DNA from: Protoeuglena noctilucae
Lineage: Eukaryota
Direction of reading: 5' to 3'
Assembly: GCA_958009085.1 (NCBI GenBank)
Contig: OY253687.1
Span: 867,259 to 887,258 of the forward strand
Length of the DNA stretch: 20,000 nt
Part shown: in pieces, positions 8,852 through 20,000 of the stretch
How positions within the stretch are numbered: position 1 is the first letter of the stretch
How the letters are laid out: each line of letters starts with the position of its first letter
Notes under the pieces: model-generated
Told to the model about the DNA's origin: nothing
The model's input: only the letters and a program-made list of their open reading frames with translations
Database searches by the model: none
Made by a program: the position numbers and the translations under genes

Positions 8852-9468
8852 TGAAGGTGCAGCTGGTCGAGGTCCGGGGGTGCTGGTGTGCCGCTTGGCT
8901 CCGGGGGGCTTGTGGCGTCGGGGCGGGGGGGCGGGTCCGTCTTGGGCTGGGCGAGCTTGCTCCGGGCTCCGGCGTCCGCGTGCACGTCGGTCTGCGGTTA
9001 AAAATGCGTAGGGAAGAGCGCGCCGAATCGGCCGCCCGGACCGCTCTCTGGCGCCCCGGTCATACCCTGCTCCACCCGTCCGGCCTTCTCTTCCGTTCGA
9101 CCGAGCATTACGGCGGGAAACGCGTATAACGACCCTGTGCTAGCGTCTGATCCCATAGAGGCGACCTGGCGTCGCCAGGCGTTCCGTACCGTCGCGCCGA
9201 ATTTTAGGCCTCGGCCTGGTTCGCGCCCGCTCGAGACCGCTTGCGAGCGTCCTAGTCTAGATTTTCTGGCAGCTGACGGCTCCGTTGTCCACCCGGGCGC
9301 TCCCAGGCAGCCGCATTCCGGTGTAGAGCTGGGTGAGCAATTGGGGACCGCTGCACCCGTGTAACCGTCCAATTCGCTCGCCGTCGCCCCCAGGCACTAT
9401 ATCAATGATCTCCGACACGCGCACGCAGGAGAGGGACGCCCGGGCGTCTTCCCGCCCGCGCCCGCGCG

Positions 9469-12400
9469 ATGGCCTTAAGTTTAGACGGAGGGCCCGGTGA
9501 CAGGCGAGCGGCGCGGTGCCTGCATCGGTCCTCTGTCATCCTCTCGTGCTGCCGTGCTCCCCGGCGAATCCTCCGCGGCGCGCGGAGAGCGGGAGCGGGC
9601 CCACCAACATTCCCCCGCCTACCCACAGCATGCTGAACCCGGGCCAGCGCACTCGTTTGATTTACCGCAATCGGAACGACGACGACCTCAAGAACCAGGC
9701 GGAGCTGGGCAGAGGGATCCTCTTGACCCCCAACGTGCAGATGTCGTTCGCGGCCGACTCGATCAAGAACATGTGGCTGAACGAACGCGGGGAGACGCCG
9801 GCCCTGGTGTACGTCGCCATGGCGGATCTCCAGAACCTCCCTATCGAAGTCCCGACGCACTCAACTGACGGAGAGAAGCTTCGTCTCGTCAAGATCGGCT
9901 TGGGGTCGTTCTACCGGGACGGTGCGCTTCCGTCGCGCGTGGCGGACATGAAGGCCGCTTACCTGCAGATCCTCGGGTGTAGTCGGTGAGTGGCGCGGTG
10001 GTGGCGTTCGCGCGGCTAGCGCGGATGAATGTTTTACGATGAGTGTGACGGTGCCATGCCGCATGCCGACGGTAGCTATCGGTTTGTTTTTTTTGTTGGG
10101 CTTTGGCTTGGGTTGACGTCCGGGTAACGTGAGCACATTAGCGTGCCTGTTGGGGTTTCGACTCCATCATGAGTCGATGCGTTAGGCCTGTGTGTGCCAG
10201 ACGTATGGGTTGGGCCCACGCCTGCGAGAAACAGCAACCCACGCCCGTCCATCCATGCGCATGCTCCCATCCCCCCTTCCCACAGGACGGAGGTCCCCAT
10301 GAACCGGAGGAAGGGCGTGACCATGGAGAAGGTCTTGCAGTGCGCGACGGTGCACCTGTGGCACCCCGACCTCTCCAACCTGCTCATCTCGGGCTACTCG
10401 GAGTGCCGAATCATGACTGAGGCCCAGGCAAGTGGGGAAGCGCTCTATCCGCGCGGGGGGCTGTGGGATGAACCTTGACCGGGACCGCTGCTCGATGTAC
10501 ATGACGCAGTTCAAGGCTACGGCGGAGGCGTTGGACAGCCTGGCGAAGGAGTGGCGCCATGCCACGGACGCCGAGCTGGTGCGTCGGGCGTGGGCAGCTG
10601 GAGGGAGCATCAGCCCTTTGTACGCTAACAACGACGCGTTCAAGGGCCTCCCGCCCGAGGCCTGGTTCGAGGGGCGATCCCAGGATCAAGACCGCGCAAG
10701 AGGAGGCTTTTAAGGTGACGTTGAGGGCGGCGGCGACGAGGGGGAGCGGGTCGGGCGACCCGCTTTGGCGGCATCGGCCGCGCCGCACAACATCATTGCT
10801 TACTGCTCGCACGTGGTCCGCAGCGGTGTGTCATGGAGTCCCCCACCCTGCGCACGTTTGTTGAGAAAGTGGAGGGCTCCCTACCCCTCGTGGCAGAGTG
10901 GACGCCCATCAGGTGCGACGCGCCCGTGGGCTACGCCACCATCCCTTCCAAGGGCGGGGCGCGGGCGCAGGCGCTGGCGGGGGGGCGGTGGACCGTGCAG
11001 CAGCGCGGCGACGGCACGGTTGCCGTCTGCCCCGTGCACTCTGCTTCTCAGGACGGGGCCGAGGGGCAGGCACAGCCGTCGGAGGCCGCTGGGGCCGAGG
11101 GGCAGGCGCCGCCGTCGGGGGCCGCTGGGGCCGCCGGGCGCCGCGTGCGACAGCTGGGTGAGGCAGCGTGCCGTGCTTGTCCGCGGCCCGTTTCCGGCTG
11201 CACACGCTTGTCGAGGGCCGGACCCGTCCCCTCCGCAGATGGGTGGTGGGACGAGGAGGGGTTCAGGCGGCTGGCCAGGATTCACATCTTTGGCGGTTAT
11301 CAGCCGGAGCGCGCATCCCCTTACGGCAAGAACATCACTTTCCAGGACACGTTGGTGAGTGCGCTGGCCGCGGTCGGGCCTGTCCTCAAATTCGCCGGCC
11401 GGCATGACAACGGGCTCCCTTACGGCTCGCAGGAGACGACGGAGGGACAGCGGTTCCTAGCGGCCTTTCTCAACGGTCGGGGGCGCGCCGCCGCAGCGAC
11501 GGCGAGCCGCAAGCCGGGCTTTCGCGTGGCCTGGGCGCAGTGCCTGGCTGAGCATGGCAGGGAGGGGCCGGCCACGGACGCCGAGCGGGCCCGCATCGAG
11601 GCCGCCGTCAAGAAGGTGGAGGCGCGTGGCGACTACACGTCGGGGCCGGCGGCGGAGGAGGACAGCCTGGAGCTGGTGGAGCTTTTCCGGGAGGTGAAGC
11701 GGGCGCTGGACGCGGACGGCCAGCTCACGGGGTGGACGGCCGACCAGATGCAGCTTTGCTGGGAGGCGGGCCAGGTCGCCAGGCGCCGCGTGGCGGCGGG
11801 CATGACCCGCCTGTCACAGGGCGAACTCAAGGCCGTGGAGGACGTGCTGGAGGCAGAGCCCGACATCCACCTGGACCTCCCGGCGGTCAAGGCGAGCGCG
11901 CGGTGGGGACGGACGACCGGGGCACCTCTTGATGCATGACGCCATGACGTGACGTGATGGCTGGCCCGCAGGAGGCTGCGGTGGCGAGGCTGCGTGAAAA
12001 ACGGAGCCACGTGGGCCGCCTGGGCGAAGCAAGCCACATGTCCATGTGGGCGCTCGTGCAAGGCATCCGCGGGGGGCGCCGTGGGACGTCCGGACAGAAG
12101 CTGATGTGGACGGAGGAGGACAAGGACCTGCTCGCGTGCTTGCGGTGGGAGCTGGAGGAGCAGGTGCGGCGCGCATGCCCCGCCAGTCTTGGGCTATTAG
12201 GCTCGCTTCACGTTTGCTCCCCTTGCCCCAAGGGGCTAGGGCCACCCACAATATGGGCATAGCACGCTGACATTCGCAGCGCATCGGGGGGGACGGCGAC
12301 GCCACGGGCGACGATCATAGCATGACGGCGCTTTTTGGCTACTTCCCCGGTCGGTCGGAGGACGCGATCCGGTCGAAGGCGCTCGAGATGACGCTGCATG

Positions 12401-13828
12401 ACGCGTGGGAGCGCCTGCGTGGCGATGGCGGCGATTGGGCCGACGAGAAGACCAAGGTCCTCATGGAGGCCATCCGGGGCATCCTGGACACCATCCCCCT
12501 CGTGCGGGGGACGATGCGGGACAAGGAGGTGCTCCGACAACTGGCTTTTCGGCGGGACCTGCAGGACCACTGGCGTAGCAAGCGCGTCTTGATGGTGAGG
12601 GACACTACCTTTCGATAGTTGCCGTGTGTGTCGCGCCGGGCGCATGTGACATGTGGGTTCTCCATGACGCCCTCGCTCTGCCTGCAGTTCGCGTTGTGGG
12701 GGTGCGACGTGTGCCTGGACTTGCCCCCAGCTGCCGGCATCTCGGCCATTACGTACTATGAGCGGCAGGACCGGCGCGGGACGCCGGCGCGATACCAGTG
12801 GCCCCCGGAGCTTGATGCCATGTTGGGCGAGGAGATCAAGGCCCGCATTCGAGGGGCCCTGAACTTGGGTGACAACGCCCCCTTCCCTTGCCCCGAGGAC
12901 GTCAAGGCCGAGCTGACCAAGAAGATGGGGAAGCAGGCACGGGAATGGCGGGCCGCGTCCCGCGAGCCAATTGCGGTGCGTGTGCGAGTCTGTGCGGCAA
13001 TGCGTTTTGCATGACGTCACCCAAATCTGTTGTGGAAAAGGGGGTTTCCATTACATGTCTGGATGCCACTCGTCCTTGATTTGTGCATGTAGGTGGCCAT
13101 GCAAGGCCGAATCCAGCAGCTCGGGCCGGTGCAAGACTGGCCACTCGATGACCTCAAGAGGCTCGTCATGGACAACTTCAGCAAGTACGCTGGCGCCGGG
13201 CAGCAGGGCGGGGGGGGGCAGAGGTGGTCGGCGGAAGCGAAGAAGATCGTCCGCGAGGTCGTCGAGCGCCACAAAGGAGCTTCGACGTCCGTTCCAAAGT
13301 TGGTGGTGAGTGGCGATAACGGGGGTTCGAGCGCGCAGATGCGCACGCGCCCGTATCCACTGGCATCCACCCATACACCCTGTGAGCCCTTCCTGCTCCC
13401 AGGCCAAGGTGCAAGAGGAGCTGCAGAAGAAGGGGTGTGAGGGGCGCAAGGATGGTGGCGTCGACTACATGGTGCGCGAAATCCTGAAAACGGCGGAGGG
13501 CGGCTCGGAGGGCGCGCGGCAGGCCAAGAGGCCGACTCAGGGCCGTTTGGCGGACGGGCGGCCGGCCAAGAAGGCGGGCCGGGGCGGCCGTGGGCGCGGC
13601 CGGCCGGCGAAGAAGGCGGCCCTAGGCGGCGCCAGGACGGGGGGCGTCGCGGAGGTGGGGGGTTCCGGTGGCGGGGGCGTGGGCGGGTGCGGGGGCGGGG
13701 ATAGCGATAGCGACGTGCAGCTTGTGGGGCTGTCAGCTCTCGGCGGCTCGGGGGGCGGCGCGGGAGTGGGGGGTCCCGGCGGTAGGGGCGCGGGTAGCGA
13801 CAACGACAGCGACGTCCAGCTGGTGTAA
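9469..13828 (+). CDS. Multi-exon orphan protein, ~990 aa: T5orf172/GIY-YIG-like motif + Myb/SANT-like repeats + AT-hook + SIM-like tail. Exons approx 9469..9503(?),9629..9985,10286..10427,10510..10589,10684..10714,10824..11157,11239..11354,11433..11891,11972..12163,12280..12594,12688..12975,13093..13305,13403..13828
   Basis: GC3-rich exon blocks linked by phase-consistent donors/acceptors. WTEEDKDLL...FGYFPGRSEDAIRSKA is Myb-like; RGRGRPAKK is an AT-hook. The 5' end (9405, 9469 or 9630) and the 10590-10683 junction are uncertain. Confidence 0.65.
11055..11133 (+). repeat. 36-bp in-frame tandem duplication (GAEGQAQPSEAA / GAEGQAPPSGAA)
   Basis: Units start GGGGCCGAGGGGCAGGC at 11055 and 11091; partial third unit at 11127. 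Confidence 0.85.
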
Positions 13829-13882
13829 GGGGGAGGCGCGAGGGTAGGTGGGGGGAGGGTGAAGGAGGGTGGGGGTGCTTTG

Positions 13883-16800
13883 AAAAGAAAAAAAAGCCCG
13901 CGGCGGGATCGGAGCCCGACACGTCAGCACCTAGTGCCGGGCACAGGGGGGCGAACCCCCACACTGGCCCCTTGGGAACCACACTCCCAGAGTGCGTGGG
14001 GGCTTTGCAGCGCGTCCCGGGGGCGGCAGCGTCGTTAGGCCACCTGAACGCGTGCGGTGAAGGCAGCGGCAACCCGGGACTTGGGGGACCGGATCTCGGG
14101 GACCTGGGTCCCCCGCTCTGTCCCACGAGGGGGGCGCCGCAGCCTTTGCAACACTCCGAACATGACGTGAAACCCTCGGCTACTGCTCCCGACTCTACTA
14201 GGCTCCCGCCCGCCGGCGCCCGCCTGAGGTTTCCTTGCGGGCACCCCGGAACAAGCACTGACGGGCAATAACCACTGTCCCTAGAGACCGAACCCGGACT
14301 TTGGGCCCTGGAGGACCGGCGACCTTGAACTCCTGCACGTCCAAGAAGCACCGAAAGAACATGTGCAGACTCACCACGTCCCGCGCACGCGCGAGCAGGC
14401 TACCCACACCATCACAGGAGTGCCATCTAGCAGACCCGGTGGGGCGCACCTTGCCGTGGCAGCCAAGCACGTCCCCCGCCAGCAGAAGGTGTACAGCTGC
14501 GCCAGGACAGAGCAAAGCATGCATATGGCGCCATGGAATACGCTGGCGAGCCCCCACCTGTTGCGGCCTCACCTAGGTCTTACCTGCAGCTGCTGGCACT
14601 GCCCCTGGGACACCCTCCCACGCGGACCTGCAATGCGGACCTTCCCGGCCGCTCACGCGGCAGCCGGGAAGCCCCGCCACGAGAACCTGCGGCCATTGGC
14701 GTGGGCGAGGACGAGCCTGTCACCCCGCTTCCCCAGCAGAGCAGCGAGGCGCCCTGCCCCAGTGACAGCAAGAGTGTCTTGGACCTCGGCTGCCACGATG
14801 GCGCCAAGCTGGGCATAGAGGCCTGCGGGCGTCGACGGGGAGCGCCAGGTCTCCCGAAGCTCTTGGCGGCACCTCCAGATGAGCTTGAAAGCCGCGCCCA
14901 CGATGACCGCCCACGAGTACTGCGTGAAACGGCTGGGGGAAGGGGGGACCAGGTGGAACACCGCCCGCGCCGAGAGGGCCGGGGCCCGCGCGGCCGCCTT
15001 GACCGTCTCCCACACCTCCTGGGCCCTGTCACAGGCCCAGAAGGCGTGGGCGACCGTGTCGTCGTGGGAGCACTGCTCGCCATCCCTGCGGAGGAGGGGG
15101 CACGTGGTGAGGTCGAGCCAGTAGCAGTGCGATGCGGTGGCACGCGCGTCGGCCAGCGTCAGCCACAGCGCCTCGTGCATCTGCGGAGACAGGGGGAGAG
15201 CGTTGATGGTCTTGAGAGCGGCATGCATGCCCGCCGCCGTGACCCCGCCCGGCCCGTCCTGGGCCTCCCCGAGCGCCCCGGCCCGGGACCACTCCTCCAC
15301 CTTGCGGGCGAGCCGCGAGGTGATGGAGGCCCGGTCGAAGGCCGCCCCCACCGCATGTCGAACCGTGTACTGCTGGAGCGGAAGGGGGACGGGCACTTCG
15401 TTGGGGCGCCGATGAGGCTCGAGGACCCACTGCGTGGAGGGGGTGACACGGGGCAGGTTGAGCTCCGCCCACCACGCGGGCTCGGGGGCCAGGCGGGGGG
15501 CGGAGTGCACAGCGACCGGCGCAGCCTGGGGGCGGGAAGGACGGGGGAGGAGTTGAGAGTCCTGCTGCGCGCAGTAAGCCGCCAGCGTGTGCTCCGCCCT
15601 CGCCAGGTCTGCGGGGGAGGGGACCTGGCCTGCGGCAAGGGAGCGGAGGTGAGCAGGGAGGGAGCCGCAGGCCGCAGGGGACAGAACCAGGCCCTGCCAA
15701 GGGTCCCATGCAACCAGGATGGCCACGAGCTGCTCAGCCACGCCCTCAAGCACCACACGGCTGGCATTGGCACGGGGAGGCACAGGCGCGCCCACAACGC
15801 CCAGCCCCTCAAGCGCCTTGCAAACCTGGATTATTACCCTTTTGACGGGGTCCTTGGCCGACGTCGTGTCGCCCAAGCGAAAGTGCAGCAGCCGCTCCCA
15901 GCGCGTGCCCCACAGCCGCCCGCACCACGACGCCTCCAGCACCTCCGAGGCCACGGCGCCCGGGGAGTCCCAGGCTATCTTGAGCCCTGCGGCCGCGGCT
16001 CGCACACGAAGGAGGTGACCCACACACCCCAGGCGAACTTTGGCCATCTTCCGAGCCTGCGGCGGGAACGAGCCATCAGCGAGAGGCAGCCCAGTGGCAG
16101 CGTCGACCAGCAAGTCCGAGGAGCCTGCGTCGGTAAGGAGGGAGAATGGGATCTCCAGGGAAGGCAACTGGGCAGCAGGCTGGGGCTCAGGGACAGGGGA
16201 GCGAGCCGGGGCGAGGGCCACAAGGGAGCCGAGCGCGGCAGGGGCCGCCAAAAGCGCCCCAAGGTAGGAGGGACCAGGGACACGAGCAGCCAAGGCAGCA
16301 CCCGCAGAGCTGGGCAACCTGGAGTCCCGAGAGAGCCATGCCACGCCGGGGCCGCCCAGGACCGTCAGGGCCCGGTCCAGCATATGGCGAGCCGGGCCAA
16401 AGCCCGGCGCGCCCGTGAGAATCTTTGCCAAAGTGCGCATGCGGCGCGCTGGGACATGCACGGTGGGCCGGGTCGCCCCCAGCCCACCCTCAGCGCGCGG
16501 GCCAAAGACCATGCAGTCAGCCGTGCGACGCCACAGGGAGCCAGCCGCGCGGTTGCCCTGCACCAGGGTGTTGACAAGCTTCTCCGCCTCTTGGTCCATA
16601 GAGGCGGGGGCGGGGGACGTCTCGAGTAGATAACTCGCCGTGCTTGCCACATAGGCACTGGCCGCCCCCGCCCTCCCCTGGATGGACAGATGCAACCCTG
16701 CGATGGCGGAACCACGCTGGATCATCACGCCCTGCGTGCGTGTCCAGACCTGGTGCAGGGCATCGCGGGTGTGGACACCCAGGTAGCGCACGCCCACGCC

Positions 16801-17682
16801 CAACCCCGTGGGCATGGACCAGCGGCAGCCCCGTGCCACCGCTGCTGCCTCCAATGAGGCGTGATCGCCCCTGCCAAGCCGGTAGACTGCCGTCTTGGCT
16901 GCATTGACCTCGAGGCCAGAGGCCGCGGCAAAGTCCTCCAGGGTCGCCGACAGCGCTTCCCATGCTGCGGGCAGGTCTGCGGTCAGGGCAGCTGCGTCAT
17001 CCGCGAAGAAGCGCGATGCCAGATCCTGCGGGGGAAGGCTGCCGAACGGCCCCGGGGGAAGAGAAACACCGAGCGCCCGCGGCTCGGATGCGGCGAGGGA
17101 CCGAAGGCGACAAGCCAGCGGCTCAATGGCAACGACGAACAGGAGGGGACTTAAGGGGCATCCTTGTTTCACCCCACGCTCTATAGAAAAGGGCCGGGAG
17201 CAGCCGCTCTCGAAGGCAAGTACAGCCTTCGACTCCACCTGGAGGGCCATCGCCGCCCCCACGAAGGGGGCGGGCAGGCCCGCATGGGTGAGGACGGCTT
17301 GGAGGTACTCATGGTCCAATGAATCGAAGGCCTTCTTGATGTCGAGGAACACTGCGTGGGCGGGACGGTTCTCGAGGGTCAGGGTCTCGTCAAGGAGCTG
17401 CAGCGTGGCGATATTAGCAATGATATCGCGGCCCGGGACGGAGGCCGCCTGGTCCCCGTGGACCAGGCGCTCCATGACGCTGGCATCGTCCCCCTCCTTG
17501 CGGAGGAGGCGATTGCCAAAGACCTTGGCCTCCGCCCTGCGGAGGGAGGTGAGGAGGGCGATGGGTCGGTAGTTGGTCCAGTCAGCTCTGGACCCCCCCT
17601 TATGCAGCAGCCGGATGGCTGCGTCCGAGAACCCAGCGGGAACAGGGTGGCCCTCGAGAAGACGGTTGGAAACATCAGCCAC
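13883..17682 (-). mobile_element. 5'-truncated L1/Tx1-clade non-LTR retrotransposon (RT ORF + ~760 bp 3' region + oligo-T/C tail)
   Basis: Contains the RT ORF below. The left boundary is inferred from an A-tract plus 43-nt motif repeated at 18830-18913. No ORF1, APE domain or TSD is visible. Confidence 0.8.
14653..17682 (-). CDS. Non-LTR retrotransposon ORF2, reverse transcriptase plus C-terminal zf-RVT; N-terminally truncated, 1009 open codons
   Basis: NYRPIALL, LDIKKAFDSLDH, GVKQGCPLSPLLF, FFADD, SGLEVNAAKT, YLGV, EGGLG and C-terminal C..C...DTVAHAFWAC...W...LIWRCR, all L1/Tx1-type motifs. Confidence 0.95.
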   Translation of the reverse strand: MADVSNRLLEGHPVPAGFSDAAIRLLHKGGSRADWTNYRPIALLTSLRRAEAKVFGNRLLRKEGDDASVMERLVHGDQAASVPGRDIIANIATLQLLDETLTLENRPAHAVFLDIKKAFDSLDHEYLQAVLTHAGLPAPFVGAAMALQVESKAVLAFESGCSRPFSIERGVKQGCPLSPLLFVVAIEPLACRLRSLAASEPRALGVSLPPGPFGSLPPQDLASRFFADDAAALTADLPAAWEALSATLEDFAAASGLEVNAAKTAVYRLGRGDHASLEAAAVARGCRWSMPTGLGVGVRYLGVHTRDALHQVWTRTQGVMIQRGSAIAGLHLSIQGRAGAASAYVASTASYLLETSPAPASMDQEAEKLVNTLVQGNRAAGSLWRRTADCMVFGPRAEGGLGATRPTVHVPARRMRTLAKILTGAPGFGPARHMLDRALTVLGGPGVAWLSRDSRLPSSAGAALAARVPGPSYLGALLAAPAALGSLVALAPARSPVPEPQPAAQLPSLEIPFSLLTDAGSSDLLVDAATGLPLADGSFPPQARKMAKVRLGCVGHLLRVRAAAAGLKIAWDSPGAVASEVLEASWCGRLWGTRWERLLHFRLGDTTSAKDPVKRVIIQVCKALEGLGVVGAPVPPRANASRVVLEGVAEQLVAILVAWDPWQGLVLSPAACGSLPAHLRSLAAGQVPSPADLARAEHTLAAYCAQQDSQLLPRPSRPQAAPVAVHSAPRLAPEPAWWAELNLPRVTPSTQWVLEPHRRPNEVPVPLPLQQYTVRHAVGAAFDRASITSRLARKVEEWSRAGALGEAQDGPGGVTAAGMHAALKTINALPLSPQMHEALWLTLADARATASHCYWLDLTTCPLLRRDGEQCSHDDTVAHAFWACDRAQEVWETVKAAARAPALSARAVFHLVPPSPSRFTQYSWAVIVGAAFKLIWRCRQELRETWRSPSTPAGLYAQLGAIVAAEVQDTLAVTGAGRLAALLGKRGDRLVLAHANGRRFSWRGFPAAA

Positions 17683-18458
17683 GACAAGCGCCGCCTCATC
17701 CGCGACATCACCCCACCGCCTGCCCCGCGCCCGACCAGGTGCAGACTCCGCCCACCGGGCCCCCAGATGCGCGATTGGCTGGCCGATACGACGAAAAAAG
17801 AGCCGTGCCCTTTTTGCGGCGATGCGAGCTATCGAATCAACTCAGAAAACGTGTGACGCGATGGAAGGACGCCAGACCGGATGTAGGGGCGATGTCAGCG
17901 TTCCACCCCACGGGCGCCACGTCTCTCGCCACTGTCTGAGCCCATCAACCCGTTGCTGCCAGCTCTGCCCCGACGTTTGTCCCCCGTCGCACCCTTTGCC
18001 AGCCCCCCCAAACGGGGCTGGTCTCTCACGTTGGCTGGAGCGTGATGATGAGCGATTCAACAGTCGAGGGGTGCTATGACTCTCAGAGCCACGCCTTGCG
18101 GCAGAAGTGCCGTCCCCCGGGGCAGCTGACACCCCGGGGTTTCCATCGTTGCAGTGCATATGGCACGTGGCCCGCCCCCGCTAGGTCGCCCCACCCTAAG
18201 GCAAAGGGGTCGCCCACCCCGGGTTCTTGCACCCCTAGCCCCCTCGCTGCGCCCGAAGGCAGAATTGCCGTCCCAGAGTGGGACGATGCAGCCGCGGGGG
18301 CTGGAGCACAGGCGACGCGCTGGCGACCCCCACGCGGACCCACCCGACCAGCGCCAGAGCCCCTGAAGGACCACGGGCGGGGAGGCCACGCGGCACGCGC
18401 AGCACCGTGGGTGTTGCCGCAGTATTAATTACGTCGGACCTTCGCAATGTGTATGTGA

Positions 18459-18532
18459 GGACTTGTGGCGCAGTTGGTGAGCGCATCGTGCTGATAACAC
18501 GGAGGTCGGAGGTTCAAGTCCTCCCAAGTCCA
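18459..18532 (+). tRNA. trnI-GAU: tRNA-Ile(GAT)
   Basis: Cloverleaf: acceptor GGACTTG/CAAGTCC, D-stem GCGC/GCGC, anticodon stem TCGTG/CACGG with loop CT-GAT-AA (18493-18495), T-arm GGAGG-TTCAAGT-CCTCC, discriminator A. TTTT just downstream; AT-rich TATTAATTA about 35 nt upstream. Confidence 0.93.
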
Positions 18533-18583
18533 CGTTTTGCTAGGTTCGATGGCAAAAAGGGCATGGAGGAAAAGGAGGAGAAG

Positions 18584-18664
18584 TGCGCTTGCCGGGACTC
18601 GAACCCGGACCTGCCGCGAACTCAGTCCTGGGAGGCGGCAATGATACCCTTTCACCACAAGCGC
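18584..18664 (-). tRNA. trnG-CCC: tRNA-Gly(CCC) with 10-nt intron (18619-18628)
   Basis: Acceptor GCGCTTG/CAAGCGC, anticodon stem GCCGC/GCGGC, loop CT-CCC-A[GGACTGAGTT]C, T-arm CCGGG-TTCGAGT-CCCGG. T4 and T5 runs downstream on the minus strand; TTAATATTA upstream. Confidence 0.92.
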
Positions 18665-18744: not shown

Positions 18745-18819
18745 GGCGCCATCGTGGCAGCCGAGGTCCAGGATACTCTGGCTGTCACTGAGGCAGGGCG
18801 CCTTGCTGCTCTGCTGGGG
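18745..18819 (+). mobile_element. 75-bp inverted fragment of the retrotransposon ORF2 3' coding end
   Basis: 70/75 identical to the reverse complement of 14731-14805 (GAIVAAEVQDTLAVT.AGRLAALLG). Confidence 0.92.
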
Positions 18820-18829
18820 CCGCTACCTG

Positions 18830-19691
18830 AAAAAAAAAAAAAGAAAAAAAAAGAAAAAAAAAAAAGAAAAGCCCGCGGCGGGATCGGAGCTCGACACGTC
18901 AGCACCTGGTGCCAGACGCGGGTGCCTCTCACTTCTCTGGACTGACTGACTTTCCTTCAACAAGGCTCACAGCTAAGGTCGCTGACCTATCTCTTGCCAC
19001 TCTTGCCCGGGGCCCTCGAGCAGTGGCTTCAGCTGCTTTGGCAGCGCCAGGGCCAGCAGCTACCAACACCAGGGAAGGTCGCATCAGCGGTGTAGCATAC
19101 ATCACCACCGCCTAGCCAAAAACAGGGCGAGGCCCTGGACCCGGCGAGCCGGTCAAGGGAGGGGTCCCTTGGAGAGTTACTTAGCAGGGCGAGGGGCCCT
19201 GGAGAGGGAAAGCCCCCTGAGGGACTGTAAGCACACCCCCCCAGGGGAGGGGAGGAGTGGAGGGGTCATGCAACGTCAGATACAGACGGGAGGGGGAGCA
19301 GGCGCCGCGTGGGATGCGGGACGAGGTGGATGTAGCGCCATAGCTACTGCTGCAGCACGGTAAGGACCACAGCAACCGGGGGGGTGCTGGGTGGACCCCC
19401 CACTCTGAGGGGGCCGACAAGTGGGGGCGGCCTACAAGTGCGGACAAGACGCAGCGGCGATTGGCCGGCGGCGGTGGGGGGGGAGAGGTGGGCAGCCGTG
19501 GCAGCCTACCCACCACAGGGGCACCGAGAACGCGCCAGGAGGCAGAGAAGACCACCTCTCTCTGCGCCTCGGGGCTGGCAGCCCCCTCAAGGTGGGGCGC
19601 GAGAGTGCAAGCCGATGGGGAAGGGGAGGGCGCACCCCACCCCCGGTGCTGGCTCGCGATCCATGCCGAACCACTTCCTCGCCTTCGTGAC
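18830..19691 (-). mobile_element. Probable 3' portion of a second related non-LTR element, capped by the telomere
   Basis: 41-nt G-interrupted A-tract (18830-18870) plus 43-nt motif 41/43 identical to 13896-13938. The remainder is not alignable by eye to copy 1, so its assignment is inferred. Confidence 0.5.
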
Positions 19692-20000
19692 GGGTTAGGG
19701 TTAGGTAGGGTTAGGGTAGGTTATGGGGGAGAGGTCAGTCAGGGGTAGGGTTAGGGTTAGGTTTTTTTGGCTTAGTTTTTTTTTGGCTTAGGGTTAGGGT
19801 TAGGTTAGGGTTAGGGTTAGGGTAGGGTTGGGTTAGGGTTAGGGTAGGGTTAGGGTTAGGGTTAGGGTTAGGGTTAGGGTTAGGGTTAGGGTTAGGGTTA
19901 GGGTTAGGGTTAGGGTTAGGGTTAGGGTTAGGGTTAGGGTTAGGGTTAGGGTTAGGGTTAGGGTTAGGGTTAGGGTTAGGGTTAGGGTTAGGGTTAGGGT
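19692..20000 (+). repeat. Telomere (TTAGGG)n, degenerate proximally and perfect from ~19850
   Basis: Direct reading; G-rich strand runs 5'->3' to the end of the window. Confidence 0.99.

Follow-up and report, generated by a model that had tools for sequence, protein, structure and literature searches.

A spliced gene beside a telomeric repeat array of Protoeuglena noctilucae, predicted to encode a Myb-like chromatin protein of a two-member family

The DNA analysed here, a stretch of 20,000 nucleotides from Protoeuglena noctilucae, presumably a green alga (hereafter the window; OY253687.1, positions 867,259 to 887,258), is the right end of contig C20, one of the 27 contigs of a 26.3-Mb genome, and its last base is the last base of that contig. 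In GC-rich, gene-dense surroundings, with enolase at the left window end, a spliced, intron-split gene is present on the plus strand at 9469-13828 (Table 1). This gene, which is not visible as a single open reading frame (ORF), had been picked out from the sequence as a hidden gene for about 990 amino acids with about 12 introns, and was thought to encode a DNA-binding, possibly nucleolytic chromatin protein with a possible relation to telomeres, mobile elements or viruses. The spliced frame comprises twelve exons and 11 introns and encodes 981 amino acids without an internal stop, and an alternative model, which adds a micro-exon at 10691-10714, encodes 989 amino acids with 12 introns, in line with the predicted size and intron number; the first 11 codons (exon 0) lack a coding signal in all frames. 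The start codon may therefore be ATG 9630 instead. Every intron of the 981-amino-acid model ends in AG, with a GT donor in eight cases and a GC donor in three. Scored with a codon model trained on the enolase of the same genome, the modelled frame ranks first of three by host codon usage in every exon from exon 1 to exon 11 (11/11). All motifs quoted in the original prediction lie in this one spliceable frame: LVYVAM (residue 71), LVKIG (98), PSRVADMK (113), WTEEDKDLL (550), FPGRSEDAIRSK (590), YQWPPELDAML (709), RWSAEAKK (813), EGRKDGG (853), RGRGRPAKK (903) and DSDVQLV (942 and 975).

RNA evidence was drawn from three of the four RNA runs (marine metatranscriptomes) together with one DNA run, with 32 of the 142 contig pieces listed. 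One contig of run X1, one of the three RNA runs, is spliced across the GT-AG intron 12595-12687 (joint 12593/12687, cut +1), and the DNA run X8 is identical to the assembly over 9012-13912 and has no splice joint at this intron. In exon 1, one unspliced RNA-run contig covers 9714-9905; RNA cover is missing over 9905-10810, which by itself proves nothing. As to splice sites in general, this genome seems unusually rich in GC-AG introns: they occur at the donors 9503, 10427 and 11891 of the window gene (3/11), at one of the seven introns of its paralogue, and also in the ubiquitin gene and the SUMO-like gene.

Searches of the genome at the DNA and protein level identified a sole relative on contig C9, at about 785-788 kb of 1046 kb and thus some 260 kb from the contig end, not at a chromosome end. 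Its open frame of 567 amino acids is spread over eight exons, and 210 of 546 aligned residues (38%) agree with residues 312-880 of the window protein, with 39-50% identity in exons 5 and 6 (G000:C9). Five introns stand at identical alignment columns and a sixth across a 15-residue indel, the phase-1 acceptor before exon 5 is common to both genes, and the paralogue possesses one extra intron. Because the paralogue conserves the introns, exons 5-11 are fixed independently of RNA. A counterpart of residues 13-200 was not found in the 6.2 kb upstream of the paralogue, exon 4 has no significant counterpart in it (score reached by 675 of 2000 shuffles), and the paralogue ends before the AT-hook and the C-terminal tail. 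The core of the gene (residues 312-880) is thus common to an internal paralogue, and the N-terminal region and the tail are found in the window copy only. The genome searches yielded no further family members, leaving two; a DNA match on C14 turned out to be merely a G-rich stretch.

Outside the own genome no relatives were found, in searches that cover few eukaryotic genomes and do not show absence. Exon 8 gave no true match among longer proteins (0 of 122 candidates), the exon 6 alignment recovered nothing but the window's own ORF from 8000 candidates that were scored, and exon 1, compared with 1.84 billion representatives, retrieved itself and three repeat-inflated artefacts. The ESM Atlas held nothing usable for the gene, none of the PHROGs matched the 11 exons better than E 0.2, and PDB sequences and phage records contained no true relative. 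Five loci from viral, metagenome and prokaryote scans proved on inspection to be short chance matches. Judged by these comparisons, the N-terminal region appears to be an orphan.

Two divergent Myb-like domains were recognised in the core by means of a profile built from 24 Myb repeats of the same genome, to which both paralogues, combined as a two-row profile, were compared with hhalign. Domain 1, the predicted WTEEDKDLL region, is borne out at residues 550-603 (probability 88.8%, score 30.1, 42 columns) and domain 2 is located at residues 814-870 (82.2%, score 27.6, 45 columns), neither score being reached in column shuffles (0/100 each). When 30 tiles were scanned with the Myb profile, only tiles overlapping these two segments matched. 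In the paralogue, Myb domain 1 obtains 8.2 bits in hmmsearch, against a best shuffle of 3.0 in 300, and its sole PDB match is c-Myb (E 0.36). Of the further W-initiated repeats that had been proposed, the one at residues 814-870 (RWSAEAKK) is thus retained, whereas YQWPPELDAML (on which the profile is silent and whose W is absent from the paralogue) and the other W-motifs are not; the WADEK segment aligns to Myb by one helix only. Elsewhere in the genome, two closely similar multi-repeat Myb genes are located at C3:3015-3633 and C12:52297-53083, the former 3 kb from the start of C3.

The C-terminal tail carries RGRGRPAKK, an AT-hook-like motif absent from the paralogue, followed by two copies of DSDVQLV, a duplicated unit of which the second copy closes the protein. 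All three nucleotide differences between the copies are synonymous (3/3), which suggests selection on the peptide. A pattern search with DSDVQLV gave three places, two of them within the window gene. The motif, with its acidic and serine flanks, fits a loosened core of the SUMO-interacting motif (SIM), for which the consensus [V/I]x[V/I][V/I] is described together with the ubiquity of such cores (PMC4476178). The genome possesses a SUMO-like gene, which is split by introns.

Taken together, the two Myb-like domains, the AT-hook-like motif and the conserved SIM-like motifs argue for the DNA-binding chromatin protein that was originally predicted. Our preferred reading, to which we assign a probability of roughly 0.55, is that the locus holds a lineage-specific host gene for a nuclear, double-stranded-DNA-binding Myb/AT-hook/SIM chromatin regulator, one of two paralogues. 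In such a protein, the Myb-like helices would recognise a defined sequence through the major groove, the AT-hook and the basic patch would add a grip on the minor groove, and the tandem SIMs at the free C-terminus, whose flanks are acidic and contain CK2-type serines, would dock on SUMOylated chromatin proteins. As such, it could serve as an adaptor that brings complexes for silencing, transcription or repair to specific sites.

Several results weigh against this reading. Next to the one spliced contig, the listed RNA contigs that span other introns are all unspliced, so that RNA confirms the predicted exon structure at intron 12595-12687 and expression comes down to a single joint. In hmmsearch with the Myb profile, the window protein alone obtains 0.4 bits, a score reached by 7 of 300 shuffles, and the Pfam Myb families PF00249 and PF13921 match none of the window exons; the latter silence may be due to the scanning of single exons, as introns cut both domains. 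The AlphaFold2 model of exon 8 has a predicted local distance difference test score (pLDDT) of 56.5 and gives generic helical-bundle matches only (best Z 4.6), and the low-confidence helical-bundle model of the exon 5/6 region (pLDDT 51.8) is uninformative. The AT-hook, although present in frame as predicted, scores 13.6 bits with PF02178 (E 0.063), below the cut-off of 17.4. The SIM-like motif was rightly noticed to occur twice, but V-Q-L-V has L at the third place and thereby departs from the strict consensus, and motifs of this kind are very common. Finally, the RNA runs provide no cover of the stretch between exons 3 and 4 (10579-10823), so that this link is unproven.

A nuclease had been suspected in the N-terminal region, in which candidate elements Y, KIG, R, H and EW occur in order across exons 1-3. 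They recall T5orf172, a GIY-YIG subfamily known in modular homing nucleases of phages and eukaryotic viruses (PMC10448857, PMC11296320). T5orf172 members were collected from 16 of 301 bacterial genomes and from 120 listed proteins, and an ordered five-block test was made with a 43-row family alignment. The region scores 19.7 bits, which 3 of 3000 shuffles attain; when the micro-exon is included the score is 17.0 bits, attained by 6 of 3000. All 207 natural tiles of the same genome score lower (best 14.6), and GIY-YIG proteins of other clades fall at 19.5-28. However, left-out true T5orf172 members score much higher (35.6-98.7), and the R and H blocks contribute 0.2 and 0.8 bits only. Because the family was picked by eye after the motif had been seen, so that a p of ~0.001 fails correction over ~25,000 families, and because the gaps allowed were generous, with the spacing from E/H to KEW at the upper limit, the match is suggestive as a lead and does not amount to family membership. 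Standard profile searches moreover fail: hmmsearch with the T5orf172 profile finds no domain, in hhalign 31 of 150 shuffles do as well as the region itself, and PF10544 and PF01541 are silent at the window locus. The ESM Atlas model of exon 1 has a pLDDT of 0.35, the candidate domain spanning three exons. In our preferred reading, the region is most likely either a degenerate GIY-YIG/T5orf172-like domain or an accessory domain unrelated to that family, and not a nuclease of proven activity. Two near-identical GIY-YIG genes, which look like SLX1, are found 15 kb apart at C8:1141385 and C8:1156382, a local duplication.

The five-block result leaves room for a reading in which the gene encodes an active, host-domesticated, site-specific nuclease, with a T5orf172/GIY-YIG head (candidate residues Y73, KIG 100-102, R115, E141 or a later acidic residue, and KEW 191-193) guided by the Myb repeats and the AT-hook and recruited or restrained via the SIMs, that is, a homing-endonuclease layout of nuclease first and DNA-binding modules after, made from eukaryotic parts. 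Codon statistics, which favour the N-terminus and the core as one gene, speak for this possibility as well, yet given the failed profile searches and the choice of family it is unlikely. An elaborated form, in which a virus- or phage-type T5orf172/GIY-YIG domain was joined with eukaryotic Myb repeats, AT-hook and phospho-SIMs into a SUMO-gated, Myb-guided host endonuclease, both ends having been added to a duplicated Myb gene and the nuclease module possibly being switched by splicing or frameshift at the exon 3-4 junction, is distinctly doubtful. Any nuclease-Myb fusion depends on the junction 10579-10823, for which 7722 in-frame splice solutions were scored. The best of these, with the micro-exon, obtains 31.0 bits and the single 245-nucleotide intron 25.7, against 16.7 bits for separate genes; reading the stretch in two frames, offset by one base near 10675, yields 37.8 bits, in which no frameshift penalty is included. 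In the frame of exon 3, 10621-10677 has +14.5 bits of coding signal, above all 482 stop-free intronic control windows; the following frame is coding-like over 10673-10714, where a strong donor of the correct phase closes it. The link between the N-terminal part and the rest is the weak point of the fusion: RNA cover is missing, the paralogue has no such part, and the junction looks like a one-base frameshift. Head and core probably descend from one gene. It could be that this strain makes no full-length fusion at all, either because a frameshift near 10675 leads, in the DNA as it stands, into the in-frame stop TAA 10711-10713, in which case the allele would be decaying or be rescued by alternative splicing, or because the locus holds two ORFs at a distance of 119 bases, one in exons 1-3 and one in exons 4-11 with ATG 10833 as its start, which may be bicistronic. 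Next to the high two-frame score, this is favoured by the identity of DNA run and assembly, which argues against an assembly slip, by the start of the paralogue at the equivalent of exon 5, by listed RNA contigs of two runs starting at 10828 and 10839 (from one study, a weak hint at most) and by the bicistronic genes reported from green algae (PMC7896298). On the other hand, an intact 12-intron solution exists and the two-gene score is low, the donor at 10578 is as strong as supported donors (7.8 bits), 10579-10620 is non-coding-like in frame, and a 3' bias of the libraries could account for the missing 5' cover, all of which renders the absence of a fusion rather improbable.

Two further readings concern mobile elements and telomeres. 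Its stop lies 54 bases from the poly(T) end of a retroelement on the opposite strand (55 had been counted in the original prediction), and this tail-to-tail contact, together with the orphan status and the nuclease-like hint, might indicate that the gene is left over from, or carried as cargo by, a mobile element or endogenous virus, or that it supplies an endonuclease to the adjacent retroelement copy, which lacks one. The 95 retroelement matches listed in the genome start at 13883 and never include the gene, however, and none of them is on C9, the contig of the paralogue. Copies on C7 and C19 are 97.7-97.8% identical to the window copy, and the C7 copy extends to a 1533-amino-acid frame; as longer copies carry an N-terminal extension, which we take to be an APE endonuclease of their own, the window copy is merely 5'-truncated. 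The retroelement is best understood as having inserted on the 3' side of the gene, a neighbour and not a part of it. Since the gene moreover has many spliceosomal introns, host codon usage, two family members only in the genome and, as far as the searches reached, no genuine relative in viruses, phages or prokaryotes, an origin of the whole gene from a mobile element or virus is largely refuted, and we give it next to no chance. A telomere-binding protein of the TRF/TRB kind, or another telomere-specific factor, was likewise suspected, for the protein has Myb-like domains and its gene is the last protein-coding host gene seen before the (TTAGGG)n array, 5,960 bases from its stop. But both paralogues lack the LKDKW-type telobox by which TRF/TRB proteins are defined (PMC4924339), telobox-type Myb domains are carried by two other genes (C10:140085 and C6:262071), the paralogue is internal (at 786 kb in a contig of 1046 kb), enolase and other housekeeping genes stand 7-8 kb upstream, and the position of a gene says nothing on the target of its protein. 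A telomere role is therefore not supported and very unlikely, the subtelomeric place being apparently incidental, and the lineage-specific Myb/AT-hook/SIM regulator remains our preferred reading.

Several further observations concern the neighbourhood. Retroelement copies are clustered once per contig on several contigs (for example C5 1.125-1.136 Mb, C10 598-605 kb, C12 370-381 kb, C8 140-175 kb and C6 45-73 kb), presumably comparable to centromeric Zepp-like clusters, and other copies are at contig ends (C7, C2). The window copy ends (13883-13938, minus strand) in a GC-rich stretch that may be tRNA-like, the tail behind it being poly(T) and not poly(A), and this and several other copies miss about 85 bases just inside the 3' end in comparison with the C7 copy. 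A short, internally deleted derivative at 18745-18942 consists of the end of the reverse transcriptase (RT) frame, the 3' terminal piece and a long T-tail. Of two dispersed repeats, a 259-base unit (18043-18301) has many copies of 95-100% identity, often near element clusters, and a 145-base unit (8897-9041), just upstream of the gene, also adjoins three element copies. The window further contains a tRNA-Ile(GAT) gene (18459-18533, plus strand), an anticodon unusual for this tRNA in eukaryotes, and a convergent tRNA (18583-18664, minus strand), which ARAGORN does not type and which reads as tRNA-Gly(CCC) with a short intron. Inside the terminal array, at 19692-19795, a short unique stretch and T-rich variants are bordered by degenerate telomere repeats, possibly marking a healed or rearranged chromosome end.

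Table 1. Features of the gene and its flank in the window (positions counted from the first base of the window).
Feature	Position	Strand	Evidence or remark
Possible exon 0	9469-9503	+	GC donor, 6.3 bits; doubtful
Exon 1, orphan N-terminal part; Y, KIG and R of nuclease-like motif (from 9804)	9629-9985	+	+55 bits over 118 codons
Exon 2 (GC donor), E and H candidates of nuclease-like motif	10286-10427	+	GC content at third codon positions 0.96; +25.8 bits coding
Exon 3, KEW as candidate last motif block	10510-10578	+	+15.7 bits coding; donor 7.8 bits
Exon 3-4 junction: one 245-nt intron, two introns with micro-exon, or frameshifted exon 3 reaching donor 10714	10579-10823	+	Coding scores
Exon 4, linker, 36-nt tandem duplication, in-frame ATG 10833	10824-11157	+	Codon usage, open frame
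Exons 5 (11239-11354) and 6 (11433-11891), helical domain matching no known family	11239-11891	+	Common to paralogue
Exon 7	11972-12163	+	Spliced frame
Exon 8	12280-12594	+	Spliced frame
Myb-like domain 1, residues 550-603, split by intron 12164-12279	12107-12384	+	hhalign
GT-AG intron, RNA-spliced, same alignment column in paralogue	12595-12687	+	Joint in run X1
Exon 9, not Myb-like	12688-12975	+	Alignment, 33% identical to paralogue
Exon 10	13093-13305	+	Spliced frame
Exon 11	13403-13828	+	Spliced frame
Myb-like domain 2, residues 814-870, split by intron 13306-13402	13225-13492	+	hhalign
AT-hook-like RGRGRPAKK in basic patch	13586-13618	+	PF02178, sub-threshold
SIM-like motif 1, DSDVQLV, acidic/serine flank	13706-13726	+	Motif
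SIM-like motif 2 at extreme C-terminus, then stop	13805-13828	+	Motif; TGTAA at 13824 overlaps stop
5'-truncated L1-like non-LTR (long terminal repeat) retroelement, RT, no endonuclease in this copy	13883-17706	-	RVT_1, E 5e-22
Telomeric (TTAGGG)n	19788-20000	+	Window ends at last base of C20

As a lineage-specific Myb/AT-hook/SIM regulator, the protein would be a modest addition to known proteins, and its gene is a clean example of what exon-level profile searches miss; the gene pair, moreover, illustrates how duplicated genes gain or lose domains at both of their ends. Should the N-terminal region be an active GIY-YIG nuclease, it would constitute a Myb-guided eukaryotic endonuclease, bearing on programmed DNA breaks or on defence against mobile DNA in this lineage. 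In the full-text literature searched, which covers few subscription journals, we found no report of a T5orf172/GIY-YIG nuclease joined to Myb repeats.

Among the closest known systems are the Myb/SANT-like families (PF00249, PF13921), with which the protein has in common two W-x-x-E-(helix)...GR[ST]-(helix) repeats matching the Myb profile of the genome. In contrast to these families, the repeats are about 210 residues apart instead of in tandem, carry inserts in the window copy and lack the second and third tryptophans, the gene stays below all Pfam cut-offs, and no known family accounts for the remainder of the protein. A further, presumed likeness is to Reb1/TTF-I/DMTF1: a large protein with helical domains before a Myb repeat, directly followed by a further W-x-x-E helix. 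In the latter proteins, Myb-associated domains are followed by two Myb repeats (bioRxiv 10.1101/2021.11.11.468186), whereas the putative second adjacent repeat of the window protein aligns by its first helix only and single exons give no Pfam match; PF21559 (Reb1_MybAD) did not match at the window gene, but the control was silent too. With TRF/TRB/TRFL proteins, the window protein has a Myb-like domain in common, but it lacks their LKDKW telobox and gave no H1-like domain match in Pfam scans. To T5orf172/MUG113 and GIY-YIG nucleases (PF10544, PF13455, PF01541), it may be similar in the order of the candidate elements Y, KIG, R, E/H and EW within residues 71-193, and differs by the missing standard profile match, an L instead of xT after KIG and long inserts. 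Finally, I-TevI-type homing endonucleases have a nuclease-first modular layout (PMC10448857) that the window protein would share, its putative nuclease-like region being joined to Myb, AT-hook and SIM modules.

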